Part shown: positions 6,054 to 58,058 of the stretch, one piece after another
How the letters are laid out: each line of letters opens with the position of its first letter
How positions within the stretch are numbered: position 1 is the first letter of the stretch
DNA from: Bacteroidota bacterium
GTDB taxonomy: Bacteria; Bacteroidota; Bacteroidia; Flavobacteriales; BACL11
Length of the DNA stretch: 64,000 bases
Direction of reading: 5' to 3'
Assembly: GCA_028408365.1 (NCBI GenBank)
Contig: JAOOLD010000002.1
Coordinates: 80,409-144,408 of the forward strand
Notes under the pieces: generated by a model
Seen by the model: only the letters and a program-made list of their open reading frames with translations
What the model was told of the DNA's origin: nothing
Databases searched by the model: none
Position numbers and translations under genes: made by a program

Positions 6054-6061
6054 TATATTTG
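6054..6061 (+). promoter_or_regulatory. -7 box TATATTTG, 4 nt before the tadA ATG
   Basis: TATATTTG-taaa-ATG. Confidence 0.65.
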
Positions 6062-6065
6062 TAAA

Positions 6066-6512
6066 ATGGATTTTAATGTTTTTAGTGATGAATTCTTCAT
6101 GAGACAAGCAATTGAAGAAGCAAAAAAAGCAATGAAAAAAGATGAAGTTCCAATTGGAGCTGTAATTGTATGTCAAAATCAAATTATAGCTAGAGCTCAT
6201 AATTTGTGCGAGTCATTAAATGATGCCACTGCTCACGCAGAAATGCAAGCTTTTACAAGTGCAAGTAATTATCTTTCTAATAAATACTTAAACGATTGCA
6301 GACTATTTGTTACTTTGGAACCATGTGTAATGTGTGCTGGAGCGTCTTATTGGGTCAGAATAAGTGAAATTATTTTTGGTGCGTCCGACAAAAAAAAAGG
6401 GTTTTTAACTTTAAACCCTCACATTCTTCACCCTAGCACTAAAATAAAAAAAGGCATTTATGAAAATGAGTGTAGTCAAATGTTAAAAGATTTTTTTAAA
6501 ACTAAACGATAA
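6066..6512 (+). CDS. tadA: tRNA-specific adenosine deaminase
   Basis: EVPIGAVIV, DATAHAE, TLEPCVMC. Confidence 0.93.
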   Translation: MDFNVFSDEFFMRQAIEEAKKAMKKDEVPIGAVIVCQNQIIARAHNLCESLNDATAHAEMQAFTSASNYLSNKYLNDCRLFVTLEPCVMCAGASYWVRISEIIFGASDKKKGFLTLNPHILHPSTKIKKGIYENECSQMLKDFFKTKR

Positions 6513-6538
6513 TAAGTTTATTTTTGCGAAAAAAAAAT

Positions 6539-6949
6539 ATGTATCCTGAACAATTATGTACACCAATGAGGTTAGAGCTAACTTCTGCTGGTTATAAAGA
6601 ACTAAAAACCTCAGAAGAGGTAACAAATTTAATGAGCCAAGAGGGGACAGTTTTATTGATGGTAAATTCCGTCTGTGGTTGTGCTGCTGGAAATGCAAGG
6701 CCAGCAGCGATAATGGCAACTAAATTTAATCCAAAGCCTGACAATTTTGCAACAGTATTTGCTGGTCAAGACTCTGAAGCAACTGCAAAAGCCAGAGATT
6801 TTATGCTTCCTTATCCAGCTTCATCACCGTCAATAGCATTGCTCAAGGATGGTAAAGTTGTCCATATGATTGAAAGACATCATATTGAGGGTAGAGATGC
6901 TAAATTAATAAGTGAAAATCTAAAATCTGCTTTCGAGTCTCATTGTTAA
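6539..6949 (+). CDS. BrxA/BrxB-family bacilliredoxin (YphP/YqiW)
   Basis: NSVCGCAAGNARP, TVFAGQD, SSPSIAL, ERHHIEG. Start set at ATG 6539 (MYPEQL); TATTTTTG box at 6519-6526. Confidence 0.9.
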   Translation: MYPEQLCTPMRLELTSAGYKELKTSEEVTNLMSQEGTVLLMVNSVCGCAAGNARPAAIMATKFNPKPDNFATVFAGQDSEATAKARDFMLPYPASSPSIALLKDGKVVHMIERHHIEGRDAKLISENLKSAFESHC

Positions 6950-8521: not shown

Positions 8522-11500
8522 ATGAAGAAGTTTATAATTTTTTTATCCATTTTATTCACTGTATTTTTCTCGTATAATTCCAAATCACAAACAATTGATT
8601 CCGTTTCAACAACAGTCCCAATTTCATGCTATGGTGATTTAGCAACCGTAAATGTTTACATTACTCAAACCTCTCCAGCATCTCCTATCAAATTAATGAA
8701 TTACAGGTTTGCAACACCAACTTTTTTAGTTTCATACGGATCTTCTGCTGTTACAACAGGAACCACACAGCCATTTTCAGGTATGATAGCAACAAACTAT
8801 AGAATGCTTATGGTTGATTCAGCCTCTTTCTGGAGTGCGTTTCCTCCGCTACCTGGCTCAACAAATCCTTTTGTGCCAAATTCACAGCTTGTTAATCCTT
8901 CAAACCCAGCAATTATTGGATATCAAGATTATACTGTTTTAGGTGTTCCATTGCTTTCGACCACCACTTTACAAACAGCTTTTAACGGATGTTTTGGAGA
9001 TTGCAATGCTGCTCAAAATATAAGTATCTTAGGTGGGACGCCTCCTTATAATATCACAATAACTGGTCCTGGGCTGGTAAATCAGTACAGCTTATTAGAT
9101 GCTTTTTCAATTGACACGACATACCAAAGTTTATGTGCTGGTACATATACCTATTCTGTTTCAGACGTAAATGGTTGTTTAACTACACCATCAGCTAGCT
9201 CTTTTAGTATAGGTCAGCCGACTCAATTATCAGTTTCTGCGGTAATTTCATCAAATTATAATGGAAGAAATGTGAGTTGTTATGGAGCGAGTGATGGAGA
9301 AATAACGGCAGTGGCTAGCGGTGGTACTGCTCCATATCAATATTCTTTAGATGGATCTTCATATACTTCAGATCCTGTTTTTTCTGCTTTAAGTTCTGGT
9401 GTCTACACTGTATATTACAAAGATGCGAATAACTGTTTAGCCTCTGAAAATATAACAATCAATGATCCACCAACTTTATCTGGAGCAATTTCTATAAACC
9501 AATCTGTGACATGCTACAGTGCCTGTGACGGATCACTTCAATTTATTGTCGATAATATTCAATCAGGAACAGCTCCGTATACTTATTCAATTGATGGAGG
9601 CTTAAGTTTTCAAAACTCCAATACTTTCTCGTCATTGTGCGGTGGAACTAATTATAGCATAATTGTTAAAGATGTCAATGGATGTACATTTACTTCCAAT
9701 ATTTTTCTTTCTGAGCCAACTGAAATTTTATTTAATGTCACATCATCTGATTTTAATGGATTTGGAGTCTCATGCTTTGGGGCTGATGATGGAGAGATTA
9801 TTATTTTCGCTCCTTCTGGCGGCACACCCAACTATGATTACTCAATTAATGGTGGAGCATCATATTCAAATTCTCTAATTTACAACAACCTAATCTCAGG
9901 AAATTATGTAGTAACAGTTAGAGATATTATTGGATGTACATCTGATACAACTGTTGTAATCACAGAACCCAATCAGTTTGATGTTCAATACACCTTAACT
10001 TCAAACTATAATGGAGTAAATGTTTCATGCTATGGCTCTTGTGATGGATCAATATCAATAGCTCAATCTAATGGCGTTGGAGTGGTGAGTTATTCACTTT
10101 CTGGATCTGTCACTCAAACTGCTCCAATTTTCTCTGGTCTTTGTGGTCAGATATCCAATGCTTCATACAATTTAATAGCTATTGATGATAATGGTTGTGT
10201 TGACAGCGTGGATGTAAATTTAACTGAACCGCAGCAATGGGTTTACTCTGTTGATTCAATAGGTGAGACATGTAACTTATCTAACGGACAAGCTTCAATT
10301 AATATTACTCAGGGAGGTACTGGTTCTTTAGCATATTTATGGGACGACCCAAATACACAAATTACATCTTCTGCCATTAACTTAGAAACGGGGACTTACA
10401 ATGTTACTGTTACAGATATTAATGGATGTAACTTTACAGAAGATGTATTTGTTGCTGAGGCAGATATTACACTGTCTTTTGATAGCGTTCCACCATGTAA
10501 CGGATTAAATAATGGTTCAGCAACTGTTATTCCAGATGGAACCCCACCTTATCAAGTAATTTGGTTTAACGGATCAACCTCAAATACAATATCAGGCTTG
10601 TCACCAGGGTATTATTCTGTATCTGTCATCGATGGATCAGGCTGTCTAGTTACGGATTCTGTTTTAATTACTAGTAGTGTTTATGTTGATTTACAACTAG
10701 ATTCTTTAAGTTCAGCACTAAGTGTTAATTGCTATGGCGATCAGTCTAGTGGAATAACTTTAAATGCGACAGGTGGTACAGGTTCTAATACTTACCTGTA
10801 TTATATCCCAAATACATTCCCTACACCGCAAGCATCCAATGTTTTTAGTGGACTTTATGCTGGCAACTATATTATATTTGCTGAAGATGCTAATGGTTGT
10901 GCAGACAGCTTAAATGTTACAATCAATCAGCCTGATGAAGTAAAATTTTATGCCTCAGTTTTTGATGTAAGTTGTTTTGCAGGTAATGATGGATCATTGA
11001 GTATTGATTCTGTTACAGGCGGGACGTCTCCATTTAACTATTTTTGGAACAACGGTTCAACAACTTCTTCAGTAAATGGATTAACCGCGGGAGATTATAT
11101 TATTTCTATAACTGACGCTAATGGTTGTATATCATCTCCAGTATCTGATACTCTTACAGTGTCTGAACCAACAATTTTACAAAGCTCAATAAGTATTACT
11201 AGTCATGCCACCTGCACTGGAGCTCAGACTTTGGCAACAGGTGAGCTAAATGTCACTATTTCTGGAGGAACTCCAGGTTACAGCTATTCATGGAGCAATG
11301 GTGAAACGTCCAATCAATTATCTTTTTTAATGCCAGATTTATATGTGCTTAATGTTACTGATAATAATGGATGTTTACTAACAGATTCAGCTGAAATTCT
11401 TACTGGTCAAAATCCTCAACTTGATGTATTAGTTCAAAATGTTTCTTGCTTTGGAGCAAATGACGGGATGATTTATACTTCTGCTTATGGTGGAACATTA

Positions 11501-14500
11501 CCATATCAATATAGCTCAGATGGGGGTAATACTTTTGTCCCCTCAGGTACACCTTTTGGTCCATCTGGTCAAGCATCTTATTTCATAACTGTTGTTGATG
11601 CACAAGGTTGTACTGATAGTGACTCAATTTATGTAAATGAGCCAGATTTACTAGCTATCAATAATATCATCGAGGAAAATGTTTCGTGTTATGATAGTGC
11701 AAACGGAAAATTAACTGTATTTCATACTGGAGGGACTTCTCCGTATACATATGCATGGAGTGATCCTCTAAGTCAAAGCACTATTACTGCGAACAATCTT
11801 TCACCAGGTAATTACAATGTTATCGTTACTGACACAAACGGATGCTCAGATACATCTTTTTCTGCATTGATAACACAACCAGACAGTCTGTATCTTTCAA
11901 CAAGTTCAAGCCTTGTAAGTTGCTACGGTGGAGCTGATGGAAGCGCTAGTGTAACTGCCTTCGGTGGTACACCAAATTACAGTTACATTTGGAGCAACGG
12001 GTCAAATACGTCAAGTATAAACAATGTGCCCTCATTAAATTACACGGTAACCGTAACCGATGACAATGGTTGTACAAGAGTAGGTTTGGTGAATGTCACG
12101 CAACCTCAACCAATAAGTAATATTTTTATAAGAGATTCAGTAACATGTGTTGGAGGAAATGACGGTTTTGCTAATGCTCTTACTTCGGGTGGTACTCCTC
12201 CTTTTAGTTATGTTTGGAGCAATAGTCAAACTACTAATCCTGTGAATAACTTATTTGCTGGCTTAAATTATCTCCAAATAACAGATACTAATGGATGTAT
12301 TTTTAATGATACAGTTAACATACTAGAACCATCTCAATCAGTAGAAATAGACTCTGCAATTACATCGTCAATTACTTGCTATGGAGCAAACAATGGTACT
12401 ATAGCCATAATTGCATCAGGAGGAGATGCTCCTTACTTATATTCTATTGACAATGGTTTTAGTTCTCAATCAAACATAGGCTTCATAAATGTTGGTAGTG
12501 GACATCATATATTATATGTTGAAGATCAAAGGGGGTGTGTGGATAGAGATACAGTAAATATAGATGAGCCAGACTCATTATATATTGACTCTACAATCTA
12601 CACTAACATTCAATGTTATTCTTTCTGCAATGGTTCAATTCAGTCTATAAATGCGATTGGTGGAACACAACCATATACTTATTCTGTTAACGGAGGCCTT
12701 CAACAATCGTCAATGGCATATTTCAATAATTATTGTGCTGGCACCTATACAGTTGAGGTCTTTGATGAAAATAACTGTGTAGCACAAGATTTAATTATCA
12801 TAAATGAACCCACTGAGCTTAATGTTCAAATTGCAACTTCTGATTGGAATAATTATCAAATTAGATGTAATGGAGAGAATTCAGGTTATGCAGACTTTAC
12901 AATTTCCGGTGGAGTATCTCCTTATATTAAAACTTGTATTGAAGTTGCAACAGGAGATACTATTCAATCTTCATCAAGCTCTCACATTGACTCTATTTCT
13001 GCAGGACTGTACAGATTCATAGTTGAGGATTCAAGAGGTTGTGTGTTTAGCACTGACATAGTTTACTACGAGCCAGACCCAATTGTTCATTCATTTGTGC
13101 CAACTCATGTTAGTTGCAATGGTTGGAATAATGGAGCTTTAATTGATATTGTTAGCGGTGGTGTAGGAACAGCTACATCTTATATTTATTCTTGGAACAC
13201 AGGAGATAGTACATATTCAATTTCCAACCTATCTTTAGGAACATACACCATTACAGTAGTTGATGAAAATAACTGTACCTCGGTTGATTCTTATAATATT
13301 AATAATAGTTTAGCATTATCGGCATCAATTAACAGTTCACTAACTAGCAATGTTTCCTGCTTTGACTTTTGTGATGGAATCATTTCTTTAAATGTAAGTG
13401 GAGGTATTCCAAATATTGATGCTAATGGTAATCCAATTTATACATATAGCTGGGATGACGTATTATCGCAAAACACAAAAACTGCGATTGGATTGTGTGT
13501 AGACAACAGTACAAATAACTCAACATATTCATGTATTGTATCTGACTCACAAGGATGTAACGATACAGTTTCGTATATATTAAATCAGCCAGAGGAGCTT
13601 GTTGTAACAGCATCAATTTTAACGGATATATTATGCTTTGGAGATAGTAATGGTAGGCTAACTGCAAGTGCAACAGGTGGTAATGGAGGAAAACAGTACT
13701 TGTGGAATAATGCGAACAACTGGAACAATAACCCAATTAATAACAACTTAAGTTCTGCTAGCTATGTTGTTGTGGTAAGAGATAACAAAGGCTGTATGGA
13801 CACCACTGAAATATTTTTACCTCAACCAAGTCAATTAGTTGTGTCAACAACTCAAAAGAATGTAAGTTGTTTCGGCGATGCTAATGGAGAGATTTCAGCA
13901 ATTGTAACTGGAGGAACTCCTACACCAGGTATTCCCCCAACGTATAATTATAATTGGTCTCCAAGCAATCAAACAACTCAAACTGCTATTAATTTAGGTC
14001 CAGATATTTACATTGTTACAGTGACAGACAATAATAACTGTAGTGTAGTGTCCAATTCAATATTCATAACTCAGCCGTCAAATCCATTGTCATTAAATGT
14101 AGATTCAACTGACGAAACATGCTTGTTAGATAATGGAACTGCAACAGCATTTGTTAATGGGGGGACCCTACCTTTTGACTTTAGCTGGACAAACTCTAGT
14201 GGAGGTTCAATAACACAAGGTGCAGGTATTAGCTCAATAAATAATTTACCCCCTGGGTTATACAATGTTGAAATTTCTGATAAGAACGGATGTATAATCA
14301 GTGGTAGTACTTTTGTTAATGGAGTTAAAAATATATTTCTTCCTGGCAATTTAGATAGGATTGATACTGTTTTATGCTTAGGTAAAAGTCTTTATGTTGA
14401 TGTAGAGGAAAAGCCTGGTTTTATATACGATTGGACTCCTGGCCCAAACACTTCTGATGTTAACTTACAACCAACAACAACTGGAGTACACAATTATATA

Positions 14501-15118
14501 TTGAGTGTAACTGAACCTGGATGTAATCCCTATGAATTAGAAGTAAATATTAATGTTGAGCAAATAAAATCTGAAATTTCTATCAGAAATAGTGAGATTT
14601 ATTTTAGAGCAGACGATGTAATTTCACCGGATAAAGCTGTAAATATTTTATCAGTTGTAAGCGATGAAAGTATAACTGTTTCCTCAAACTCCAACTTAGG
14701 AATATCTCATGAATGGGTATGGGACCAAGGAACTAGCACTGAATCTGATATCCAAATTCCTAATATTGATAAAAATAAATGGATATATCTTAAACTTGAT
14801 TCAAGTGGTTGTTTAGGATATGACTCAGTATATGTTGCGCTTTCAGTTATACCGTTTGATGCAATAAGTCCGAATGGAGACATGAAAAATGATAAATGGA
14901 ACATTTTGGGAATTACTGCAAATAGATATGATCAGGCGGTAATAACAATTTATAACAGGTGGGGAGAGGAAGTATATAAAACTTATGGAGGTAGTCAGTT
15001 TACGCCTTGGGATGGAACAAAAGACGGTAATGAATTACCTGTTGGTACTTATTATTACATAATAGATTTGGCTAATGAAGATGAACCCATTACCGGCCCA
15101 GTAACAATTATTAGATAA
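8522..15118 (+). CDS. Large SprB-repeat surface adhesin with type B T9SS C-terminal domain
   Basis: Signal peptide, about 22 repeats of the form VSCxGxxDG..GGTxPYxY..LxxGxY..DxNGC, and C-terminal SPNGDMKND..IYNRWG..WDGT..GTYYYII..VTIIR. Confidence 0.93.
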   Translation: MKKFIIFLSILFTVFFSYNSKSQTIDSVSTTVPISCYGDLATVNVYITQTSPASPIKLMNYRFATPTFLVSYGSSAVTTGTTQPFSGMIATNYRMLMVDSASFWSAFPPLPGSTNPFVPNSQLVNPSNPAIIGYQDYTVLGVPLLSTTTLQTAFNGCFGDCNAAQNISILGGTPPYNITITGPGLVNQYSLLDAFSIDTTYQSLCAGTYTYSVSDVNGCLTTPSASSFSIGQPTQLSVSAVISSNYNGRNVSCYGASDGEITAVASGGTAPYQYSLDGSSYTSDPVFSALSSGVYTVYYKDANNCLASENITINDPPTLSGAISINQSVTCYSACDGSLQFIVDNIQSGTAPYTYSIDGGLSFQNSNTFSSLCGGTNYSIIVKDVNGCTFTSNIFLSEPTEILFNVTSSDFNGFGVSCFGADDGEIIIFAPSGGTPNYDYSINGGASYSNSLIYNNLISGNYVVTVRDIIGCTSDTTVVITEPNQFDVQYTLTSNYNGVNVSCYGSCDGSISIAQSNGVGVVSYSLSGSVTQTAPIFSGLCGQISNASYNLIAIDDNGCVDSVDVNLTEPQQWVYSVDSIGETCNLSNGQASINITQGGTGSLAYLWDDPNTQITSSAINLETGTYNVTVTDINGCNFTEDVFVAEADITLSFDSVPPCNGLNNGSATVIPDGTPPYQVIWFNGSTSNTISGLSPGYYSVSVIDGSGCLVTDSVLITSSVYVDLQLDSLSSALSVNCYGDQSSGITLNATGGTGSNTYLYYIPNTFPTPQASNVFSGLYAGNYIIFAEDANGCADSLNVTINQPDEVKFYASVFDVSCFAGNDGSLSIDSVTGGTSPFNYFWNNGSTTSSVNGLTAGDYIISITDANGCISSPVSDTLTVSEPTILQSSISITSHATCTGAQTLATGELNVTISGGTPGYSYSWSNGETSNQLSFLMPDLYVLNVTDNNGCLLTDSAEILTGQNPQLDVLVQNVSCFGANDGMIYTSAYGGTLPYQYSSDGGNTFVPSGTPFGPSGQASYFITVVDAQGCTDSDSIYVNEPDLLAINNIIEENVSCYDSANGKLTVFHTGGTSPYTYAWSDPLSQSTITANNLSPGNYNVIVTDTNGCSDTSFSALITQPDSLYLSTSSSLVSCYGGADGSASVTAFGGTPNYSYIWSNGSNTSSINNVPSLNYTVTVTDDNGCTRVGLVNVTQPQPISNIFIRDSVTCVGGNDGFANALTSGGTPPFSYVWSNSQTTNPVNNLFAGLNYLQITDTNGCIFNDTVNILEPSQSVEIDSAITSSITCYGANNGTIAIIASGGDAPYLYSIDNGFSSQSNIGFINVGSGHHILYVEDQRGCVDRDTVNIDEPDSLYIDSTIYTNIQCYSFCNGSIQSINAIGGTQPYTYSVNGGLQQSSMAYFNNYCAGTYTVEVFDENNCVAQDLIIINEPTELNVQIATSDWNNYQIRCNGENSGYADFTISGGVSPYIKTCIEVATGDTIQSSSSSHIDSISAGLYRFIVEDSRGCVFSTDIVYYEPDPIVHSFVPTHVSCNGWNNGALIDIVSGGVGTATSYIYSWNTGDSTYSISNLSLGTYTITVVDENNCTSVDSYNINNSLALSASINSSLTSNVSCFDFCDGIISLNVSGGIPNIDANGNPIYTYSWDDVLSQNTKTAIGLCVDNSTNNSTYSCIVSDSQGCNDTVSYILNQPEELVVTASILTDILCFGDSNGRLTASATGGNGGKQYLWNNANNWNNNPINNNLSSASYVVVVRDNKGCMDTTEIFLPQPSQLVVSTTQKNVSCFGDANGEISAIVTGGTPTPGIPPTYNYNWSPSNQTTQTAINLGPDIYIVTVTDNNNCSVVSNSIFITQPSNPLSLNVDSTDETCLLDNGTATAFVNGGTLPFDFSWTNSSGGSITQGAGISSINNLPPGLYNVEISDKNGCIISGSTFVNGVKNIFLPGNLDRIDTVLCLGKSLYVDVEEKPGFIYDWTPGPNTSDVNLQPTTTGVHNYILSVTEPGCNPYELEVNINVEQIKSEISIRNSEIYFRADDVISPDKAVNILSVVSDESITVSSNSNLGISHEWVWDQGTSTESDIQIPNIDKNKWIYLKLDSSGCLGYDSVYVALSVIPFDAISPNGDMKNDKWNILGITANRYDQAVITIYNRWGEEVYKTYGGSQFTPWDGTKDGNELPVGTYYYIIDLANEDEPITGPVTIIR
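8990..14300 (+). repeat. Protein-level tandem SprB-type repeats (about 80 aa unit, about 22 copies)
   Basis: 22 DxxG/NC repeat ends counted by hand in the translation. Copies are highly diverged at DNA level and the boundaries are approximate. Confidence 0.8.
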
Positions 15119-18498: not shown

Positions 18499-18506
18499 TA
18501 AATTTG
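18499..18506 (+). promoter_or_regulatory. -7 box TAAATTTG, 4 nt before the msrB ATG
   Basis: TAAATTTG-tgat-ATG. Confidence 0.65.
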
Positions 18507-18510
18507 TGAT

Positions 18511-18894
18511 ATGAAACAAAATAAAAATTATTTCTCAACTTTAACAAAGGAAGAACATGAAATAATAGTAAATAAAGGTACTGAAAAACCATTCTCAGGA
18601 AAATACAATAACTTTTACCTTCAAGGAATTTTTGTTTGTAAAGCCTGTGAAACACCTCTTTACAAATCAAGTAACAAGTTTGATTCAGGATGTGGTTGGC
18701 CTTCATTCGATGATGAAATAGAAGGTGCAATCTCAAGATTTCCTGACTATTCAGGAGGTAGAGTAAGAACTGAGATTTGTTGCTCTAACTGTGGTGGGCA
18801 TTTAGGTCATGTTTTTGAAGGTGAGAGATTTACGAAGAAAAATACTCGACATTGTGTTAACTCTTTAAGTATAAAGTTTGTTAAACAAAGCTGA
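18511..18894 (+). CDS. msrB: Peptide-methionine (R)-S-oxide reductase
   Basis: GTEKPFSG, CKAC, SGCGWPSF, GHLGHVF, RHCVNS. Confidence 0.95.
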   Translation: MKQNKNYFSTLTKEEHEIIVNKGTEKPFSGKYNNFYLQGIFVCKACETPLYKSSNKFDSGCGWPSFDDEIEGAISRFPDYSGGRVRTEICCSNCGGHLGHVFEGERFTKKNTRHCVNSLSIKFVKQS

Positions 18895-27690: not shown

Positions 27691-28417
27691 TTACTTTTAG
27701 TTCTTGATCTATCTTATCAAAGACAAAATTATTTAATTTTTTTAAATCATTTTTGTCAAAATTTCTGATTTGTATTGGATCAAGATATTTAATTCTAGAA
27801 ATTCCGGGAGAACCTTTGAAATAAGACCACGGAAATCTTTTTTTATTGTCATATATGACAACTGGAAGTATATCAGTACCACTTTCTAATGCTATTTTAA
27901 AGGCTCCATTTTTAAATCTTCTCAATCTAACTTCTGGGTTCGGAATTCCTCCTTCAGTAAAAACACAAACACTTATTTCCTCATTAACTACTTGCTTGGC
28001 TCTGACATAAGCATTATATGAATCTCTTAAATTCTGTCTATCAACGCTTATTGAATTTTTTTTGAAATAATATCCGAAAATTGGAAACTTAGTAATTTCT
28101 GATTTTCCAATAAAAATTAGAGGAATATTAGCTGTGGAGTAAATTAAAGCTATGTCCAAGCTAGAAACATGATTTGAACAAATAATGTATGTTTTATTTT
28201 TCTCAATTTTTTTCGATAGTTCTCCTCTAACTAAAATACCTGAGAAAAAAAGTAAACATTTCGACCATAATTTTGATATCTTAAAAATCTGTTTTTTGTT
28301 TGGTAATAAGTTCGTGAATAAGAAAAGGGCAGGTAAAAACAATATTTGAGTAAATACAAAAAACAAAAAAACCCAACTTCTCCATAAGAGTGAGAGAAGA
28401 TACTTTCCAAATCTCAT
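27677..28417 (-). CDS. plsC: 1-acyl-sn-glycerol-3-phosphate acyltransferase family
   Basis: NHVSSLD (NHx4D), FTEGG, FKNGAF. Confidence 0.85.
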   Translation of the reverse strand: MRFGKYLLSLLWRSWVFLFFVFTQILFLPALFLFTNLLPNKKQIFKISKLWSKCLLFFSGILVRGELSKKIEKNKTYIICSNHVSSLDIALIYSTANIPLIFIGKSEITKFPIFGYYFKKNSISVDRQNLRDSYNAYVRAKQVVNEEISVCVFTEGGIPNPEVRLRRFKNGAFKIALESGTDILPVVIYDNKKRFPWSYFKGSPGISRIKYLDPIQIRNFDKNDLKKLNNFVFDKIDQELKVNENI

Positions 28418-28421
28418 AGTA

Positions 28422-28429
28422 CAAATATA
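28422..28429 (-). promoter_or_regulatory. -7 box TATATTTG, 4 nt before the plsC ATG
   Basis: TATATTTG-tact-ATG on the minus strand. Confidence 0.65.
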
Positions 28430-35287: not shown

Positions 35288-37101
35288 TGTTTAGTAAACT
35301 TTTCAAATAAGTTACTATAAATTTCACTGTTTTTCAAAAGTTTATTATGAGTACCTGAATCAATTATTCTTCCTTTGTCGAGAATCAAAATTTTATCACA
35401 ATTTTGGATTGTATTTAAATTATGGGTTATTATTAAGCACGTTCTATCTTTCATAATATTTTGAATAGCCATGTTAACGTATTCTGCGGAATCAGCATCA
35501 AGGGATGAAGTTGCTTCGTCAAGTATTAAAAATTCAGGATTTTGAATCAAATTTCTAGCTATACATATTCTTTGCTTTTCTCCTTGAGACAAATTGTTTC
35601 CTTTATCACCCACATTAAAATTAAATTTTTTAGGTAGTTTTTCAATGAAATTATATGAGTAAGAATCCTTTGCAGCTTTAATTATATCACTATTTTTTGC
35701 ATTTAGATTACCAAGAAAAATATTGTTAAATATTGTGTCGTTGAACAAGAATGGGACTTGATCTACACTTCCAAAAAATTCCCTAATGGAACTGATGTCA
35801 TATTTACTTAATTTTTCATTATTAATGTAAATTTCCCCACTATCAAAATTATATAATCTGTTAATTAAGTCGCAAATAGTTGTTTTGCCTGAACCTGAGT
35901 GTCCAACTATAGCAATATTTTCACCTTTATTAATTCTGAAAGAAGTACCGCTTAAAACCTTATTGTTATCATGGCTGAAATGAACATCCTTAAACTCCAA
36001 ATAATCAAAATTTTTAATTTTCTTCTTCGAGTTTTTGATGTTATCTTCATCTTTTAAATTGATGATTTCAAATACTCTTTTTGAAGCCGCATTACCTTTT
36101 TTTATGCTGTAAAATGAAGATGTGAGAGATTTTGCTGGAGGAATTAGTTGAGAAAAAATCAGAACAAAGCCAATAAATTCTTGAGCTAGAATTTCAGATT
36201 TAGTGTTTAAAACCATAGTTCCGCCAATAAGCAAAACAATTACCAATACAATAGTACTTAAGAACTCACTCATTGGAGAGGATAAGTCTTTTTTTCTCAG
36301 TAAAGAGTTCATAAGCTGACTATATTTTTTACTTTCAATTGAAAAAATCGAATGTATATGTTTACTTATGTTTAATGATTTAATGGTTCTAATTCCTGAC
36401 AAGGTTTCGTCCACCTTACTCATAATTTTACCCATTTGACTTTGAACTTTGTCTGAATCTTTTTGCAATTGTTTGCCAATGTATCCAATTATAAATCCTA
36501 CAATTGGAAACATTATTATTACAAGCAATGTTAATTTAAAACTTAATGTTAATAACGCAATTAAAAAAATAATGATTGTGATGGGGTCTTTAAATAACAT
36601 TTCCAAAGTGCTCATGATTGACCATTCTATTTCAATTAAATCATTAGAAATTCTTGAAAGAAGATCTCCCTTTTTTCTTTTTTCAATCGATTTTATGGGA
36701 ATTGAAAGTAATTTTTTATTAATTACAACCCGAATATCATTTATAACTCCATTTCTTATTGGAACCATAAAATATAGTGCTAAATATCTAAAAAGGTTAC
36801 GAAACAAAAAGCTTATTAAAATTAATGAGCAAATTAAAATTAGTGCTTTAGCACTTCCACTGGATTCAATGGTATGACTTATTTGATAATAAAAAAGGTT
36901 TTTGACGCTTTCAATGCTATTTATAATTTCAGGCGGGTTAACTACTCTTTCTTGTGTCCCAAATAAAACACCTAAAAATGGTATAATCATTGTTAATGAT
37001 ACCAAAGAGAAGATTGATGATAGTGCATTAAAAAACACATTCAACATACAATAAGCTTTGTAAACTTTTAGATAGCTTAGAAATTTCAATAAACTTTTCA
37101 C
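35281..37101 (-). CDS. ABC transporter permease/ATPase fusion, MsbA-like
   Basis: N-terminal TMD, GHSGSGKT, LSQGEKQR, ILDEATSSLD. Confidence 0.9.
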   Translation of the reverse strand: MKSLLKFLSYLKVYKAYCMLNVFFNALSSIFSLVSLTMIIPFLGVLFGTQERVVNPPEIINSIESVKNLFYYQISHTIESSGSAKALILICSLILISFLFRNLFRYLALYFMVPIRNGVINDIRVVINKKLLSIPIKSIEKRKKGDLLSRISNDLIEIEWSIMSTLEMLFKDPITIIIFLIALLTLSFKLTLLVIIMFPIVGFIIGYIGKQLQKDSDKVQSQMGKIMSKVDETLSGIRTIKSLNISKHIHSIFSIESKKYSQLMNSLLRKKDLSSPMSEFLSTIVLVIVLLIGGTMVLNTKSEILAQEFIGFVLIFSQLIPPAKSLTSSFYSIKKGNAASKRVFEIINLKDEDNIKNSKKKIKNFDYLEFKDVHFSHDNNKVLSGTSFRINKGENIAIVGHSGSGKTTICDLINRLYNFDSGEIYINNEKLSKYDISSIREFFGSVDQVPFLFNDTIFNNIFLGNLNAKNSDIIKAAKDSYSYNFIEKLPKKFNFNVGDKGNNLSQGEKQRICIARNLIQNPEFLILDEATSSLDADSAEYVNMAIQNIMKDRTCLIITHNLNTIQNCDKILILDKGRIIDSGTHNKLLKNSEIYSNLFEKFTKHQ

Positions 37102-37105
37102 TCTA

Positions 37106-37113
37106 CAAAGATA
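37106..37113 (-). promoter_or_regulatory. -7 box TATCTTTG, 4 nt before the GTG of the ABC transporter
   Basis: TATCTTTG-taga-GTG on the minus strand. Confidence 0.65.
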
Positions 37114-37156
37114 ATTAATGGTAGGAATAACGTAAACAAATTATTATTATTGCAAA

Positions 37157-37498
37157 ATGCAATCAAACAACAGAGTGAGTAAAGTATCCAGATTAATCCA
37201 AAAGGAATTATCAAATGTTTTTAACATTGATTTAATTAATCAATTTTCTGGAATCATAATTAGTGTAACAACTGTAAGAATCACACCAGACTTCTCTGAA
37301 GCAAGAGTTTTTTTAAGTGTTTTTCCATTGGAGAAACCCAATGAGTTTATTAAACGAATAAATGATAATAAACAATTTATAAGAGGTAAATTAGGAAGTA
37401 GAATTAAAAATCAATTTAGAAAAGTTCCAAAATTGATATTCTTTTTGGATGATTCAGCTGAATTTTCAGATGAAATAGAAGAGCTCATCAAAAAATAA
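37157..37498 (+). CDS. rbfA: Ribosome-binding factor A
   Basis: RVSKVSRLIQKEL, SVTTVRITPD, RKVPKLIFFLDDS. Confidence 0.95.
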   Translation: MQSNNRVSKVSRLIQKELSNVFNIDLINQFSGIIISVTTVRITPDFSEARVFLSVFPLEKPNEFIKRINDNKQFIRGKLGSRIKNQFRKVPKLIFFLDDSAEFSDEIEELIKK

Positions 37499-38711: not shown

Positions 38712-39686
38712 GAATTTATCTTTTATGCTTTCTAATATTTCTATTATTTCACTTGCATTCTCAGATGAAACTAATTTAATTCTATGATCTTTAAAATGAG
38801 GTATGCCTCTGAAATAGTTTGTGTAGTGCCTTCTTGTTTCGAAAATTCCGAGTCTTTCGCCCTTCCATGCAATTGAATGTTTCAAATGTCTTTTACATAC
38901 CCTTACTCTATCTTCAATAGTTGGCTTAGAAATGGTTTCTTTGTTTTTTAAATAGCTTTTGATTTCATTAAAAATCCATGGATATCCAATTGCTGCTCTT
39001 CCAATCATTACTCCATCAATCCCATATTTTTTTTTCATCTCAAGGGCTTTTTCGCCAGAATTTATATCACCGTTACCAAATACAGGAATATGCATGCGTG
39101 GGTTTTTTTTTACCTCACCAATTAATGTCCAATCGGCTTCACCTTTATACATCTGTTTTCTAGTTCTTCCGTGTATAGATATTGCTTTAATTCCAACATC
39201 TTGTAATCTTTCAGCTACTTCAACAATATATTTACTATTTTCATCCCAGCCTAATCGGGTTTTTACAGTTACTGGCAATGAGGTTGATTTAACAATTTCT
39301 TTTGTCATTTTAACCATTTTTGGAATGTCTTGTAAAATACCTGCTCCAGCTCCTTTACACGCAACTTTTTTCACTGGGCATCCGTAATTTATATCAATTA
39401 TATCAGGATTAGCTTGTTCACAGATTGCAGTGGCTAATTTCATAGATTCTATGTTTCCCCCAAAAATTTGGATTCCAATTGGTCTTTCTTCGTCATATAT
39501 ATCCAGCTTCATAGTGCTTTTTTCTGCGTCCCTAATCAATCCCTCTGAGGAAATAAATTCAGTGTACATAATGTCAGCACCATTTTCTTTACAAATTGCT
39601 CTGAACGGAGGGTCACTAACATCCTCCATTGGAGCTAACATTAAAGGGAAGCTGCCTAAATTAATATTTTCTATTTTTACACTCAC
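38691..39686 (-). CDS. dusB: tRNA-dihydrouridine synthase B
   Basis: LAPMEDV, DINYGCP, VKTRLGW, IHGRT, GNGDI, MIGRAAIGYPW. Confidence 0.95.
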   Translation of the reverse strand: MSVKIENINLGSFPLMLAPMEDVSDPPFRAICKENGADIMYTEFISSEGLIRDAEKSTMKLDIYDEERPIGIQIFGGNIESMKLATAICEQANPDIIDINYGCPVKKVACKGAGAGILQDIPKMVKMTKEIVKSTSLPVTVKTRLGWDENSKYIVEVAERLQDVGIKAISIHGRTRKQMYKGEADWTLIGEVKKNPRMHIPVFGNGDINSGEKALEMKKKYGIDGVMIGRAAIGYPWIFNEIKSYLKNKETISKPTIEDRVRVCKRHLKHSIAWKGERLGIFETRRHYTNYFRGIPHFKDHRIKLVSSENASEIIEILESIKDKFSEFSFS

Positions 39687-39690
39687 CTTG

Positions 39691-39698
39691 CAAAATTA
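39691..39698 (-). promoter_or_regulatory. -7 box TAATTTTG, 4 nt before the dusB GTG
   Basis: TAATTTTG-caag-GTG on the minus strand. Confidence 0.65.
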
Positions 39699-41056: not shown

Positions 41057-41057
41057 A

Positions 41058-41930: not shown

Positions 41931-41934
41931 TACT

Positions 41935-42735: not shown

Positions 42736-42775
42736 TGTGTTGTATTTTTATAGGTGGAACAAATTTAAAAAAATA

Positions 42776-43468
42776 TTATAATGACACTAAGTATCTTCTA
42801 TTGACTTCGTCCCAGTTTATAATATTAAAAAATGCGTTTATATAATCAGGTCGTCTGTTTTGATAATTTAAATAATATGCATGCTCCCAGACATCGATTC
42901 CTAAAATCGGAGTCCCTCCGCAACCATTTTCCATTATAGGATTATCTTGATTTGCAGTAGAGCAGGTATTTAATTTACCGTTGTTCACACAAAGCCATGC
43001 CCAGCCAGAACCAAATTGAGTTGCTGCAGCTTTCGAAAAAGTATCCTTAAAATTATCGAAACTTCCGAAACTTTCAACTATTGCATTTCCTACTTCATTA
43101 TTTGGTATTCCACCTCCATTAGGGGTTATAATTTCCCAAAACAAACAGTGATTGTAAAATCCTCCTCCATTATTTCTAACAGCACTTGACAGGTTTTTTG
43201 ATTTCAGTATTTCTTCAATAGACTTACCTGCAAGTTCAGTGCCTTCTATTGCTGCATTTAGCTTCGTAGTATAACCATTGTGATGTTTACTATGGTGAAT
43301 CTCCATTGTTTTAGCATCAATATGAGGCTCTAATTCGTTGTATGAGTATTTTAGTTGTGGTAATTCAAATGCCATATTTTTTCTTTTAAAATTAAACAAT
43401 CTTGGAACAAAAGCTAAAGTTGCAATACCCAAAGTAAAATATGCTAGAAACTTTCTTCTTGTGCTCAC
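42776..43468 (-). CDS. sodA: Fe/Mn superoxide dismutase with a possible Tat-type N-terminal extension (alternative start ATG 43375)
   Basis: [28 protein letters not shown]; upstream extension MSTRRKFL. The metal type is not established. Confidence 0.9.
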
Positions 43469-43472
43469 TAGG

Positions 43473-43480
43473 CAAAAGTA
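43473..43480 (-). promoter_or_regulatory. -7 box TACTTTTG, 4 nt before the SOD GTG
   Basis: TACTTTTG-ccta-GTG on the minus strand. Confidence 0.65.
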
Positions 43481-43484
43481 ATAA

Positions 43485-44285
43485 TTATTTTTCTTGAAAG
43501 AAGCCTTCGCTTACTAAAAATTCTTTTTGATTATTCTGTATATTATTCTTTATGTTTTCTTTATTTCTAAGATTTTTGTAAACTAACTTACAGCAATTTA
43601 TTAAGGCTTCTTTGTTATATTTTATTTCTAAAAAATTAAAAGCTTCTGCTAATATTTCTTTTGGGTTAAGAGTAAGGTTAGAGTAATTTATTAAAAAAAA
43701 ATCTTTATTGGATTCATTAAAAAATTTATTAATTGCGATATAAGATAATCTCCATTCAAGAAGTCCTTTATTAAAATCAGTTTTTAAAAAATCTTTAGTT
43801 TCAATGTTATTTCTCTTTGCATATTCAATTAACAACCTTAGCTTGTTGTCATTGATGCCATACCAATTCCCCTTTCCAATTTTTTCTTCAATTGATGCTG
43901 CAACTTCAAGGGGATTTCTTTTAATGACAATAAATTTTGCTTCAGGAAAGGCTTTACTAATAAAATTTAATCTAAAACAGTTTACAGGAAGTTTTTCAAG
44001 AATATTATTTTTCTTGTTTCTTTCAGCTTCCTTAAAAAAAACACTTCTAATCTTTTCATTTTTTTTTGTGTTGTATTCACTATTCTTGAAATCAAGAACA
44101 GAGTTGATATTGTCCCAAATGTTCAATTCAGGAAAGACCTTATGCCAAAGATCGCGCCTTTCGTTTAAAACATGTGTATTGGAGCATGAGCCAATAAGCC
44201 TGGAAAGTAGTGTTGTTCCAGATCTACCACATCCAACAAGAAAAACAATATTTTCTGGTTTTTTTCTGCTAAATAAATTAATCAT
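43485..44285 (-). CDS. PAPS-dependent sulfotransferase family protein
   Basis: [10 protein letters not shown] (5'-PSB loop), [15 protein letters not shown] (3'-PB motif). Confidence 0.85.
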
Positions 44286-45123: not shown

Positions 45124-46034
45124 TTGTGAAGCACAATTTTGTTAGTTAATGTTCCAATTTTTTCAATACTCATTTCAACAATATCATTTTCTTTGAGCCA
45201 AGTCTCTTTATATTCTGTGTTTTTTCTTTTTTCAGTTCCATTGATTTCTAGCAAACATCCCTTACCTACTGTACCTGATCCAATTACATCACCAGGAAAT
45301 ATTTTAGTTCCATATGAAACTCGCTCAATAATTTCTTCAAAGGACCAGTGCATAGTCTTAAGATTTCCAATTGAATAAAGCTTATTATTAATTTTACATT
45401 TCATTTCTAAGTCAATTTTACCATTAGAAATTTCATTTTCATAAATTTCATCTCTTGTTACAACAAAAGGACCAAAAATATTAGCAAAGTCTTTTCCCTT
45501 AGCAGGACCTAAGTTAAGCTTCATTTCACTTGATTGGATTTTTCTAGCGCTCATATCATTGTAGATTGTAAATCCACCAATAAACTCTCTTGCTTTTTCA
45601 GCCTTAATATTTTTACCCTCTTTGCATATTATAATTGCAATTTCAAGTTCATAATCAAGTTTATTTAAATGTTCTGGCATACACTCAACTTCATCTAAGT
45701 GACCTAAAATTGAATTGTGATTTGAGAAGTAAAAAACAGGAAATTCATCAAACTCCTTTATCATTTCAGCATCCCTGTTTCTTCTACAAGTTTCAACATG
45801 TTCTTTGAAAGCATAGGCATCTCTTAAGCTATTTATTTTTGAAAATGGAGCTAATATTTTAACATCTTCTAATTTTATAATTTCTTTCTTTTTTTTATCC
45901 TCTAAATTATGAGTGTGGCTCTTTTGTAAAAAAGAAATGATATTATCGGATTCGTCACTCAAGTCATAAATTCCATCATTAATAACCTGACCAAAAGATA
46001 TTTGGTTTTTATATAAATAACGTGCAAGCTTCAC
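45120..46034 (-). CDS. Fumarylacetoacetate hydrolase family protein
   Basis: LRDAYAFKEH, FYFSNH, LDYELE, NDMSAR, GPAKGKDF, PGDVIGSGT; divergent from hmgA-hppD. Confidence 0.88.
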   Translation of the reverse strand: MKLARYLYKNQISFGQVINDGIYDLSDESDNIISFLQKSHTHNLEDKKKKEIIKLEDVKILAPFSKINSLRDAYAFKEHVETCRRNRDAEMIKEFDEFPVFYFSNHNSILGHLDEVECMPEHLNKLDYELEIAIIICKEGKNIKAEKAREFIGGFTIYNDMSARKIQSSEMKLNLGPAKGKDFANIFGPFVVTRDEIYENEISNGKIDLEMKCKINNKLYSIGNLKTMHWSFEEIIERVSYGTKIFPGDVIGSGTVGKGCLLEINGTEKRKNTEYKETWLKENDIVEMSIEKIGTLTNKIVLHK

Positions 46035-46039
46035 TCTTA

Positions 46040-46047
46040 CAAAAGTA
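46040..46047 (-). promoter_or_regulatory. -7 box TACTTTTG, 5 nt before the FAH GTG
   Basis: TACTTTTG-taaga-GTG on the minus strand. Confidence 0.6.
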
Positions 46048-46115
46048 TTAAAACTAGGTTAATAATGACTTTCATACTATTAAAAAAAATAGTAATTTGC
46101 ATAAAATATTTTGTA

Positions 46116-47273: not shown

Positions 47274-47283
47274 ATTAATATTT

Positions 47284-54949: not shown

Positions 54950-56192
54950 TTATAAATCTTTTATACTTTTTTGTGTTTTTTCATTTATACTCTTATCTTG
55001 CAAGGAACCCTCAGAAATAGGTCTTGACATACATCCTGAAAGTGATAGAATTCTGATAAAAAATAATTCGAATTTTTTTAATTTTTCAACGAATACTCTT
55101 TCTGAAGATTCTTTAAGGACTGATGAACCTGTTAGATTATTACTAGGTAACCTTACTAGTGATCCTATTTTCCCAAAATCTAATGCGCACTTTATTTCTA
55201 ATCTTCTACTTCCATCAAACAATATCAGCTTTGGAGACATAACAAATATTATTGTAGACAGTGTTATATTGCAATACGTTATTGATGACTATTACGGAAA
55301 TGAAATCCAAACTTTTCCTAATCTATACGTATCAAAATTAACAGATCCAATTTATAAAGATTCGTCTTACTATTCCAACTATCCTGTTGTTTATAGTCAA
55401 TCTGAATTAGTTTCAGTAAATAACATAGTGGTTCAGGACTCAAATTCTGTATCAATAATCAAAATTTCAATAGACAACTCCTTAGGACAAGAAATCATCG
55501 ATGGTGGAAATGCCTTAAGCTCTAATGAAGATTTTCTTCAGTATTTTTACGGTCTTAAAGTTGCCACTGTCAATCCATCAGATTTAAACTTAGCTAATGA
55601 CAATACAATATTGTATTTAAACGCTGATAATCAAAAGTCTAAATTTTCAATTTACTACAGAGATATTTCTGTAAATGATTCAGTAATGTCTTTCGATTTA
55701 ATGTTAGGAGGAGAAGCTGCTAGAATTAATCTTTTTAATCAAAAAAATATTCAACAACTTAACGCTTCTACCGATAGCTGTTACGTTCAGTCAATGTCAA
55801 GTTATTTAACATCTATTCAGTTTAATAACTTAGAAAGTATTAGGGATACTTTAAAGAATAAAGTCATAAATAAAGTTAATCTTAAATTCTCATGCAATGA
55901 GGATTTACAATTTGGAGCTCATGAAAAACTTTTCCTAGTCAGAAAAAATCCCATGGGAGTTAATGTTTTTTTAAGTGATTTTGTCATAGAGGGAGAATCA
56001 CATTTTGGTGGGCAGAATCAGAACAATAATTTTACTTTTAACATAACAAGGTATTTTAGCGATTTGATAAATGGAGCTTCAGGCTTCACAGGAGAACTTT
56101 TATTGTTACCATCAGGTGCTGTAATAAATGCAAACAGAACAATAATACCAAAATCAAGTTTTGTGATTGAAGTATTATATTCTGAATTATAA
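54936..56192 (+). CDS. DUF4270-like lipoprotein
   Basis: Lipobox LLSC, LLGN..DPIF, FLQYFYGL, FNITRY; lies between the GT5-like gene and glmS. Confidence 0.75.
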   Translation: MRLYSYKSFILFCVFSFILLSCKEPSEIGLDIHPESDRILIKNNSNFFNFSTNTLSEDSLRTDEPVRLLLGNLTSDPIFPKSNAHFISNLLLPSNNISFGDITNIIVDSVILQYVIDDYYGNEIQTFPNLYVSKLTDPIYKDSSYYSNYPVVYSQSELVSVNNIVVQDSNSVSIIKISIDNSLGQEIIDGGNALSSNEDFLQYFYGLKVATVNPSDLNLANDNTILYLNADNQKSKFSIYYRDISVNDSVMSFDLMLGGEAARINLFNQKNIQQLNASTDSCYVQSMSSYLTSIQFNNLESIRDTLKNKVINKVNLKFSCNEDLQFGAHEKLFLVRKNPMGVNVFLSDFVIEGESHFGGQNQNNNFTFNITRYFSDLINGASGFTGELLLLPSGAVINANRTIIPKSSFVIEVLYSEL

Positions 56193-56210
56193 TAACTTCG
56201 TTTTAATTGT

Positions 56211-56218
56211 TACTTTTG
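56211..56218 (+). promoter_or_regulatory. -7 box TACTTTTG, 4 nt before the glmS ATG
   Basis: TACTTTTG-aaaa-ATG. Confidence 0.6.
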
Positions 56219-56222
56219 AAAA

Positions 56223-58058
56223 ATGTGTGGAATTGTTTCTTACATCGGAAATAAAGATGCGTACCCAATAATAATAAAGGGACTTAAAAGATTAGAGTAC
56301 AGAGGTTATGATAGTGCAGGTATATGTTTGCTTAAAAACAGTTTAATATCATATAAATCCAAGGGAAAAGTCAAGGATTTAGAAAAAGAGTTTAATAAAA
56401 AACCCATTAGTTCATTTGTAGGAATAGGACATACAAGGTGGGCAACTCATGGTGAGCCAAACAAAACAAATGCTCACCCTCATTTGTCAAACTCTAAAAA
56501 TCTAGCTATAGTTCACAACGGAATAATTGAAAACTATGATTCAATAAGAAAACTATTGAAGAAAAAAGGTTATAAGTTTTATTCTGACACTGATACTGAA
56601 GTTTTAATTAACTTAATTGAATATGAACAAAAAAGTGAAAATCTTAGTTTATTTGAATCAGTAAGGTCGGCTCTTAAGCAGGTTATTGGAGCATATGCTA
56701 TTGTTGTAATGGAAAAAGATAATTTTAACGAAATTGTTGTTGCTAGAAAAGGTTCTCCATTAGTTATAGGAATTGAAAATGGAGAATATTATGTTGCTTC
56801 TGATGCTAGCCCAATAATTGAGTATACAAAAAATGTTGTTTATCTTAATGATGACGAAGTTGCAAGAATAAATATTAAATCAGGTTTACAAATTAAGACT
56901 GTAAGTAATAAGAAAGTTACTCCTTTTGTACAAGAGTTAGCATTATCAATTGAAGATATAGAAAAAGGAGGTTTTGATTATTTTATGTTAAAAGAAATTT
57001 ATGAGCAACCTAAGAGTATAAGATCCACTTTAAGAGGAAGAATCACAGCTCAAAATAAAATTAAATTAGCAGGTTTTAGAGACTTTGAGAAAAAAATTTT
57101 AAAAGCAAACAGATTTACAATCATTGCCTGTGGTACATCATGGCATGCTGGCTTAGTTGCATCATATTATTTTGAAAGCATAGCTAGAATTAATGTTGAT
57201 GTTCAGTATGCATCAGAGTTTAGGTATAGAAACCCAGTATTAAACGAAAATGATGTTGTGCTAAGTATTACTCAATCTGGTGAAACTGCAGATACTCTTG
57301 CCGCTCAAAAACTTGCAAAAAGTAGGGGAGCTATATCACTGGCTATATGCAATGTTGTTGGCTCAAGTATTGCCAGAGAAAATGATGGTGGAGCATATAC
57401 TCATGCTGGTCCTGAAATTGGAGTTGCCTCAACAAAAGCTTTCACTACTCAACTTACAATACTACTCTTAATCGCACTTAGATTAGGAAAAGAAAATTCT
57501 TCCATAAGAGATCGAGATTATCAAAGAATGTTGATTGAAATTCAGATGCTCCCATCAACATTAGAGGAATGTTTAAAAATTGATAAAAAAATAAAAAAAA
57601 TTTCTAAGGAGTTTATGAACTCAGAAAACTTCTTATATCTAGGAAGAGGTATGAACTTTCCAGTAGCTTTAGAAGGAGCTCTTAAGTTGAAAGAAATATC
57701 ATACATTCACGCTGAAGGGTATCCTGCAGCTGAAATGAAGCATGGCCCTATAGCTCTCATTGACGAAAAGATGCCAGTGGTAGTTATAGCAACAGAAGAA
57801 GAGCACTACACAAAAATTTTAAGCAATGCTCAAGAGGTGAAGTCAAGAGGAGGAAGAATTATTTCAATAGTTTTTGATGCTGATGAGTCAATATCTAGTA
57901 TTTCCGAGCATGTAATCAAAGTCCCTAAAGTAAACAAATACTTGTCTCCAATAATTTCTGTAATATCTCTTCAACTACTTTCTTATCACATTGCAGTTAT
58001 GAGAGGATGTGATGTTGATCAACCAAGGAACTTAGCTAAATCAGTTACGGTCGAATAG
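56223..58058 (+). CDS. glmS: Glutamine--fructose-6-phosphate aminotransferase
   Basis: MCGIV, LEYRGYDSAG, GHTRWATHG, QSGETAD, PRNLAKSVTVE. Confidence 0.98.
   Translation: MCGIVSYIGNKDAYPIIIKGLKRLEYRGYDSAGICLLKNSLISYKSKGKVKDLEKEFNKKPISSFVGIGHTRWATHGEPNKTNAHPHLSNSKNLAIVHNGIIENYDSIRKLLKKKGYKFYSDTDTEVLINLIEYEQKSENLSLFESVRSALKQVIGAYAIVVMEKDNFNEIVVARKGSPLVIGIENGEYYVASDASPIIEYTKNVVYLNDDEVARINIKSGLQIKTVSNKKVTPFVQELALSIEDIEKGGFDYFMLKEIYEQPKSIRSTLRGRITAQNKIKLAGFRDFEKKILKANRFTIIACGTSWHAGLVASYYFESIARINVDVQYASEFRYRNPVLNENDVVLSITQSGETADTLAAQKLAKSRGAISLAICNVVGSSIARENDGGAYTHAGPEIGVASTKAFTTQLTILLLIALRLGKENSSIRDRDYQRMLIEIQMLPSTLEECLKIDKKIKKISKEFMNSENFLYLGRGMNFPVALEGALKLKEISYIHAEGYPAAEMKHGPIALIDEKMPVVVIATEEEHYTKILSNAQEVKSRGGRIISIVFDADESISSISEHVIKVPKVNKYLSPIISVISLQLLSYHIAVMRGCDVDQPRNLAKSVTVE

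Follow-up and report, generated by a model that had tools for sequence, protein, structure and literature searches.

Promoter boxes four nucleotides before the start codon suggest an enlarged class of leaderless genes in one family of Flavobacteriales

Introduction

Where does an mRNA begin when its promoter lies almost on top of the start codon? The question is raised by a stretch of 64,000 nt (hereafter the window; positions 80,409 to 144,408 of GenBank contig JAOOLD010000002.1, G000:C12:80409-144408 in our numbering) from a marine Flavobacteriales bacterium of the lineage BACL11, whose genome assembly (GCA_028408365.1, G000) comprises 1.47 Mb in 54 contigs with a GC content of 30.4%. Several genes in the window start 4 or 5 nt after TAnnTTTG, the -7 element of the primary sigma factor in Bacteroidota. 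The original prediction, made from the window alone, was that the transcription start site (TSS, position +1) coincides with the first base of these start codons, that a large share of first-in-operon genes would thus be leaderless, some of them with GTG as start codon, and that this would be a streamlining strategy. In what follows, the N-number (N4, N5, etc.) is the number of nt between the TAnnTTTG box and the start codon, and the published studies referred to are cited from parts of their text or tables.

All nine sites on which the prediction was built are confirmed on the sequence, in position and strand as well as in box, spacing and start codon, and each of them opens an open reading frame (ORF) of 113-611 aa. 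Seven are exact TAnnTTTG-N4-ATG/GTG sites, which is the complete set in the window, one has a variant box (rbfA) and one is N5 (a FAA hydrolase). As detailed below, it is likely, judging from the sequence, that N4 genes are leaderless and transcribed from ordinary Bacteroidota primary-sigma promoters lying 4 nt before the start codon. A leaderless class is already known for this type of promoter, and it is enlarged about 3-fold in the family to which this bacterium belongs, reaching its highest level in its genus.

A sharp spacing peak across the genome

The bare TAnnTTTG motif occurs in the window no more often than by chance (118 matches, a number reached in 46 of 100 shuffles, versus 117 expected), and the signal must therefore lie in the position of the box relative to start codons. 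Accordingly placed boxes were counted for the 1308 ORFs of at least 100 aa in the genome, by taking as start the first ATG, GTG or TTG after a stop codon and measuring the gap to the upstream TAnnTTTG. An exact box was found at N4 in 68 of these ORFs, versus none at N3, nine at N5 and two at N6, followed by a shoulder of 3-15 per bin between 7 and 25 nt and by about 1-2 per bin beyond 30 nt. The sharp peak at 4 nt that had been anticipated is thus present genome-wide. It persists, with 73 ORFs at N4, when any candidate start within 150 nt is counted, while six permuted control motifs gave only 0-2 ORFs at N4 and showed no peak.

The same picture emerged from raw sites, irrespective of how starts are called. 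As many as 77 of the 117 TAnnTTTG-N4-[A/G]TG sites in the genome open an ORF of at least 100 codons, compared with 3/41 at N1, 7/100 at N3, 23/62 at N5, 9/49 at N7 and 11/56 at N10. Enrichment of the 4-nt spacing over chance is therefore seen both against permuted motifs and against other raw spacings; the fixed-distance layout is far beyond chance and N5 is a smaller genuine class. Degenerate boxes are also in excess at N4, with 32 versus about 18 for one mismatch and 111 versus about 85 for two mismatches. The variant found in front of rbfA, in which position 5 of the box is changed from T to A, occurs five times at N4, versus a mean of 0.69 at other spacings.

The box as a promoter and the position of +1

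Published TSS maps make it possible to place +1 relative to the box. In Flavobacterium johnsoniae, the TSS was found 4 or 5 nt downstream of the -7 element, the G of which sits at -5 (PMC6847099), and in F. psychrophilum TAnnTTTG occupies positions -12 to -5 (PMC9723704). Table S2 of the latter study contains two genes, panD and THC0290_0124, in which the box is followed by 4 nt and ATG and the 5' end was mapped to the A; this was a spot check, in which both coding sequence (CDS) rows with a TSS-to-start distance of 0 in the parts of the table covered had this layout. With this published Flavobacterium geometry, N4 mRNAs should therefore begin on the start codon. In the 156 leadered promoters of G000 (box 7-30 nt before the start), A occurs with a frequency of 0.61 at exactly the fifth nt after the box. 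N4 and leadered boxes have in common a T at -4, and G is scarce at the two n positions of the box in both sets, which consist of exact boxes by design (0.02 at each position in the N4 set, 0.10 and 0.04 in the leadered set), as it is in F. johnsoniae, where the element was described as TAHHTTTG (PMC6847099).

Genes that are never translated were informative as well. An exact box lies 5-25 nt before the mature 5' end of 20 of the 29 tRNA genes found on all the contigs of G000 (within 5-15 nt in 18 of them, and in none at 4 nt or less), and it is therefore a promoter, i.e. a transcription signal, rather than a translation signal. From these distances, tRNA precursors should carry 5' leaders of only about 1-11 nt.

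Taken together, these features outline a scenario for ordinary primary-sigma promoters with the -7 box TAnnTTTG (-12 to -5) exactly 4 nt upstream of the start codon. RNA polymerase would begin on the A or G of ATG or GTG, producing an mRNA without a 5' leader, and the ribosome would recognise the 5'-terminal AUG or GUG directly, by analogy with other leaderless systems. This layout is fixed in the genus and partly common to the family, with mostly leaders of 11-24 nt instead in large-genome relatives, and the lineage would be distinguished by a higher steady-state share of leaderless genes, not by a new mechanism. The idea that +1 is the first base of the start codon thus stands as far as the spacing peak and the published geometry go, with the TSS placed by box geometry only.

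Extent of the class

After removal of shadow ORFs, 1188 genes remained, 67 of which have an exact N4 box. Putative heads of transcription units, defined by a divergent neighbour or an upstream gap of at least 25 nt, number 505 and comprise 53 N4, nine N5, 47 N6-14 and 105 N15-60 genes, plus 291 genes without an exact box. N4 genes thus represent about 10% of all putative heads and 25% of the heads carrying an exact box, so that the 'large share' of first-in-operon genes proposed originally turns out to be a sizeable minority and not a majority. Within the window, 7 of 29 heads are N4 (with the superoxide dismutase gene, SOD, counted), in addition to the rbfA variant and the N5 hydrolase.

Most N4 genes (53 of 67) head their own unit and the other 14 follow a co-directional gene at less than 25 nt. 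Of the 63 with an upstream neighbour, this neighbour is divergent in 38 cases and co-directional in 25, and 29 have less than 40 nt upstream. About 77 genes with exact boxes are in the leaderless class, a number that may reach some 100-110 with degenerate boxes, since the N4 excesses would add roughly 14 genes (one mismatch) and 26 genes (two mismatches).

Very short leaders (about 2-10 nt) would result from boxes at 6-14 nt, which account for 62 of 253 boxes in G000 versus 18 of 215 in three large relatives, about a threefold difference; part of this 6-14 nt class may be an artefact of the first-candidate start rule.

Start codons

Start codon usage differs between N4 genes (56 ATG, 10 GTG and 1 TTG) and genes with a box at N6-30 (133 ATG, 7 GTG and 18 TTG). 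By Fisher's test, and in a genome of only 30% GC, GTG is over-represented at N4 (10/66 versus 7/140, p = 0.026) and TTG is under-represented (p = 0.016, with 18/158 at N6-30). GTG-started genes with a box nearby are almost all N4 (10) or N5 (two), with none at N6-16. Leaderless starts thus obey an ATG/GTG-only rule, which fits a purine at +1.

Four of the sites in the window had been put forward as leaderless GTG starts. For three of them, encoding an ABC transporter, DusB and the FAA hydrolase (FAH), the GTG is matched in alignments by an ATG for residue 1 or 2 of the proteins of relatives, and these GTGs are therefore genuine start positions, whereas the start of SOD is uncertain (see below). 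Orthologues of the ABC transporter have an ATG at residue 1 with an N4 box in two genomes (G010 and G006) and an N20 box in two others (G016 and G018). For dusB, the layout is ATG at N4 in G010 and G018, N9 in G006, N15 in G015 and TTG at N16 in G016, while the FAH orthologue in G010 has an ATG at residue 1 and its box at N17. For the ABC transporter, dusB and two further GTG genes, sister-genus orthologues keep an ATG at the same N4 position, in 4/4 cases with an N4 orthologue.

This usage of GTG appears to be restricted, since its share among N4 sites opening long ORFs is 14/78 in G000, 2/12 and 3/7 in two members of the genus, and 0/58 in the five genomes of other genera that were sampled. 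It is tempting to speculate that the repeated A to G change at +1 in the genus is a selected tuning knob and that, as in mycobacteria, 5'-terminal GUG is translated by the ribosomes of Bacteroidota, but we consider this combined proposal rather unlikely. If true, the choice of A or G at +1 would act on weaker translation, GTP-dependent transcription initiation, or both, and confirmation of GUG-initiated leaderless translation would extend the mycobacterial rule to a second phylum.

Counting the raw GTG pattern TANNTTTGNNNNGTG against a reversed control in 21 genomes proved too noisy (20 versus 15 in G000, 30 versus 15 in G010), hence the use of the ORF-based count. In the 400 kb sampled from G010, no TANNTTTGNNNNGTG site opens an ORF of at least 100 codons, despite this genome-wide count of 30 versus 15.

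Comparison with relatives and genome size

The same ORF pipeline was applied to 400 kb samples of five other Flavobacteriales genomes. The N4 peak is present in all five, although it is smaller than in G000. The N4 share of ORFs is 5.2% in G000, 4.1% and 3.3% in two family members of 1.6-1.7 Mb, and 2.0, 1.9 and 1.6% in three genomes of 3.1-4.3 Mb from other families (Fisher's test: p = 5e-6 for G000 versus the pooled large genomes, p = 0.15 for G000 versus the family samples). The values of 1.6-2.0% in large genomes are of the order implied by the TSS map of F. psychrophilum, in which leaderless mRNAs correspond to 5.5% of 890 TSS-preceded CDSs (PMC9723704). In the large genomes, a dip at 6-14 nt is followed by a hump at 15-32 nt; in G000 this dip is filled.

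A wider survey relied on a raw density, i.e. the count of the ATG pattern TANNTTTGNNNNATG minus that of a reversed control, in 151 genomes of the order from 16 families. The genus of G000 ranks first and second of the 151 genomes, and its family (f1) has the highest density, with a median of 40 per Mb, versus 2.2 in f10 (1.85 Mb), 10 in f17 (0.6 Mb) and 17.8 in f7 (4 Mb). Correlation of density with genome size gave a Spearman coefficient of -0.35 on family medians (p = 0.18) and of -0.20 within f1 (p = 0.37). The N4-ATG density is thus a lineage trait of this family, with a weak link to genome size.

At the level of individual genes, the nine sites in the window are all kept in one genus member (G001) and eight are kept in another (G003), the exception being SOD. 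Spacer letters vary within the genus, for example in dusB, while box, spacing and start stay the same. Orthologues of the 67 N4 genes, where present in the sampled DNA, are at N4 in 18/19 cases in the genus, 9/36 in the family and 1/21 in the three large genomes. Counterparts in non-streamlined relatives are thus mostly leadered, the same start position usually having a box 15-28 nt upstream. Conversely, only 2/10 classified N4 genes of the large genomes are N4 in G000, and 9/20 of those of the family, and since N4 is both gained and lost among orthologues, leader status is labile both ways. A case in point is glmS, the frame of which opens with M-C-G-I in all 15 genomes with an orthologue, so that its start codon is not in doubt. 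Its N4 box is found in 4/4 genomes of the genus and in 0/11 others, where glmS directly follows the upstream gene, and this distribution identifies it as an apparent gain of the leaderless layout.

Alternative explanations

Several observations weigh against the notion that N4 genes are leaderless. The first-candidate rule used for calling starts favours spacings in frame with the box, because the TAA or TAG within the box is an in-frame stop codon. The peak nonetheless holds with any-start and raw-site counts. As 291 of the 505 putative heads have no exact box, the true leaderless share is uncertain. A -33 TTTG element gives no clear signal in G000 promoters, where G does not exceed 0.17 at any position from -40 to -25, and no such element is evident in F. 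johnsoniae either, as far as the consulted part of that study goes (PMC6847099). RNA data came from 24 seawater/marine RNA runs in the form of assembled contigs, each with at most 0.18 of the sampled words, and the four contig sets compared with positions 28000-47500 of the window at 90% likeness (X1, X3, X4 and X8) consist of fragmentary contigs of related strains; as these metatranscriptomes of relatives are assembled contigs only, they carry no TSS information. Furthermore, one metatranscriptome contig from X4 (39655-40051) spans the dusB promoter, which may reflect a neighbour's transcript, read-through or DNA. Finally, SOD in 5/5 relatives (best matches) starts at MAFELP, which corresponds to residue 32 of the frame in the window, and the GTG start is uncertain because these proteins begin 31 codons further down; the true SOD start may be an internal ATG.

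One alternative is that the N4 boxes are inactive as promoters and transcription comes from further upstream, the TTTG-N4-ATG context serving the translation of leadered mRNAs that are devoid of Shine-Dalgarno (SD) sites. Bacteroidota genes indeed have no SD sites and rely on the sequence context close to the start (PMC6847099, PMC6028130), the 14 N4 genes closely following a co-directional gene could be read through, and the dusB box is crossed by the RNA-library contig just mentioned. However, the same box precedes most tRNA genes, two F. psychrophilum TSSs fall on the A of ATG in the same layout (PMC9723704), N4 and leadered boxes have common flanking features, permuted motifs produce no peak and the near absence of TTG at N4 is not what a model based on translation context predicts. 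We regard this scenario as very unlikely. Less probable still is that the promoters are genuine while several start codons are miscalled, translation beginning at a downstream codon and the apparent N-terminal codons being in fact leader. SOD is the clearest candidate for this, since in addition to the start seen in relatives its domain begins at residue 32-34 and a Tat-signal model gave no match to the protein at E values up to 10. Yet the SOD extension stays open for 31 codons in 30% GC DNA and carries S-T-R-R-K-F-L followed by a hydrophobic stretch, which resembles a twin-arginine signal; tatC is present in the genome, and in G003 an ATG replaces the GTG in the same frame, with a 3-nt spacer. 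More generally, chance in-frame starts exactly at N4 cannot yield the proportion of long ORFs seen at raw sites, the starts of the ABC transporter, DusB, FAH and GlmS align with residue 1-2 of their orthologues, and Pfam domains start within 6-16 residues of the called start in the Dus, RbfA, MsrB and deaminase proteins.

A different matter is whether leader loss, if the N4 genes are leaderless as we propose, is an adaptive part of genome streamlining, with shorter intergenic DNA selecting leaderless promoters. In line with this, the N4 share is highest in G000, intermediate in the small family members and lowest in large genomes, very short leaders are commoner in G000 than in large relatives (62/253 versus 18/215), the large-genome orthologues of N4 genes are leadered, and, among co-directional gaps, those of 15-30 nt most often contain an N4 box (8/47). 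However, density follows lineage and not size over the 16 families, the correlation with size falls short of significance on family medians as well as within f1, the N4 share of divergent genes does not rise as the gap shrinks, and leaderless status is also lost, as illustrated by the small fraction of the N4 genes of large genomes that are N4 in G000. The 'streamlining strategy' is thus not borne out by the survey and, although possible, an adaptive role of this kind seems doubtful.

Known systems and significance

Leaderless mRNAs known from 5'-end RNA-seq of cultured Bacteroidota, i.e. F. psychrophilum (PMC9723704), F. johnsoniae (PMC6847099) and Bacteroides thetaiotaomicron (PMC7366714), have the same type of -7 box and the same geometry, with box, 4 nt and ATG in the two F. 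psychrophilum genes of the spot check. They are a small minority there, since according to the same TSS maps 3.7% of 5' untranslated regions are shorter than 10 nt and 87% of leaders are longer than 10 nt, as opposed to the share of putative and boxed heads deduced from boxes in G000. The closest parallel for the start codons comes from mycobacteria, in which a leaderless 'RTG' rule was demonstrated with reporters and ribosome profiling (Shell et al., 2015; PMC4633059). As in that system, the 5' terminus in G000 would be ATG or GTG but not TTG, with the difference that this is a codon census only (56/10/1). Mycobacteria belong to another phylum and use a -10 box of the sigma-70 type rather than the Bacteroidota -7 box. 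Unlike them, G000 has no class of small leaderless ORFs, none being found among intergenic N4 ORFs of 30-99 aa. A fixed, short spacing between a promoter box and the first gene of the operon is also found in group C of GeneMarkS-2, the leaderless-rich bacteria such as Actinobacteria and Deinococcus-Thermus (PMC6028130). In the portion of that study that we used, about 90% of Bacteroidetes/Chlorobi were assigned instead to group B, with non-SD ribosome binding sites. In our literature search, which left most subscription journals outside its reach, we found no description of a raised leaderless share in marine Flavobacteriales.

These findings have practical and conceptual implications. What is known of such marine Flavobacteriales comes mainly from assemblies of single cells and metagenomes, in which gene starts are called by software trained on leadered genes. 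With the box-plus-4 rule, exact start codons and promoters are obtained for about 80-110 genes in each genome, among them genes with GTG starts or with N-terminal extensions like that of SOD. It also appears that leaderless genes, which have been reported to be rare in Bacteroidota, differ several-fold in their share from one family of the order to another, with a quick turnover between orthologues, which makes this order a natural system for understanding how leader length is determined in bacteria that do without Shine-Dalgarno pairing.

Sites in the window

The coordinates of the nine sites are listed in Table 1. The corresponding gene names are backed by Pfam matches, i.e. deaminase, SelR/MsrB, acyltransferase, ABC transporter, Dus, Fe/Mn SOD, GlmS-type GATase+SIS, RbfA and FAA hydrolase.

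Table 1. Promoter boxes and start codons of the nine sites in the window
Gene	Site (strand)	Box	Box position	Spacing	Start codon	CDS	Remark
tadA-like deaminase	6054..6068 (+)	TATATTTG	6054-6061	N4	ATG	6066-6512	Layout identical in G001 and G003
msrB	18499..18513 (+)	TAAATTTG	18499-18506	N4	ATG	18511-18894	
plsC-like acyltransferase	28415..28429 (-)	TATATTTG	28429-28422	N4	ATG at 28417	27677-28417	
ABC transporter	37099..37113 (-)	TATCTTTG	37113-37106	N4	GTG at 37101	35281-37101	
rbfA	37145..37159 (+)	TATTATTG	37145-37152	N4	ATG	37157-37498	Variant box
dusB	39684..39698 (-)	TAATTTTG	39698-39691	N4	GTG at 39686	38691-39686	
SOD	43466..43480 (-)	TACTTTTG	43480-43473	N4	GTG at 43468	42776-43468 (frame)	
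FAA hydrolase (FAH)	46032..46047 (-)	TACTTTTG	46047-46040	N5	GTG at 46034	45120-46034	
glmS	56211..56225 (+)	TACTTTTG	56211-56218	N4	ATG	56223-58058	

Promoters are tightly packed in the window. Back-to-back arrangements are seen for the divergent ABC transporter and rbfA genes (gap of 55 nt), for plsC, the box of which faces away from a plus-strand box at 28439-28446 that lies 10 nt before the ATG at 28457 (gap of 39 nt), and for dusB and its neighbour (27 nt). Among co-directional genes, the glmS box is inside a 30-nt gap after the upstream gene and the SOD box inside a 16-nt gap, the stop codon of the upstream gene being at 43485-43487.

Three other ORFs in the window deserve mention. The region 8522-15118 (plus strand) is a single ORF of 2198 aa, with no exact box within 68 nt upstream. 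The minus-strand ORF 4278-6200 would overlap tadA if read from its first ATG, and a minus-strand box at 6039-6032 precedes an in-frame GTG at 6020 by 11 nt (window 6018-6068); a start at this GTG would give a back-to-back pair with tadA within about 45 nt, with a run of A as leader. In the plus-strand ORF 27107-27433, the second ATG, at 27119, lies 5 nt after a box at 27106-27113, and this gene may have an N5 leaderless start at 27119 instead of 27107.

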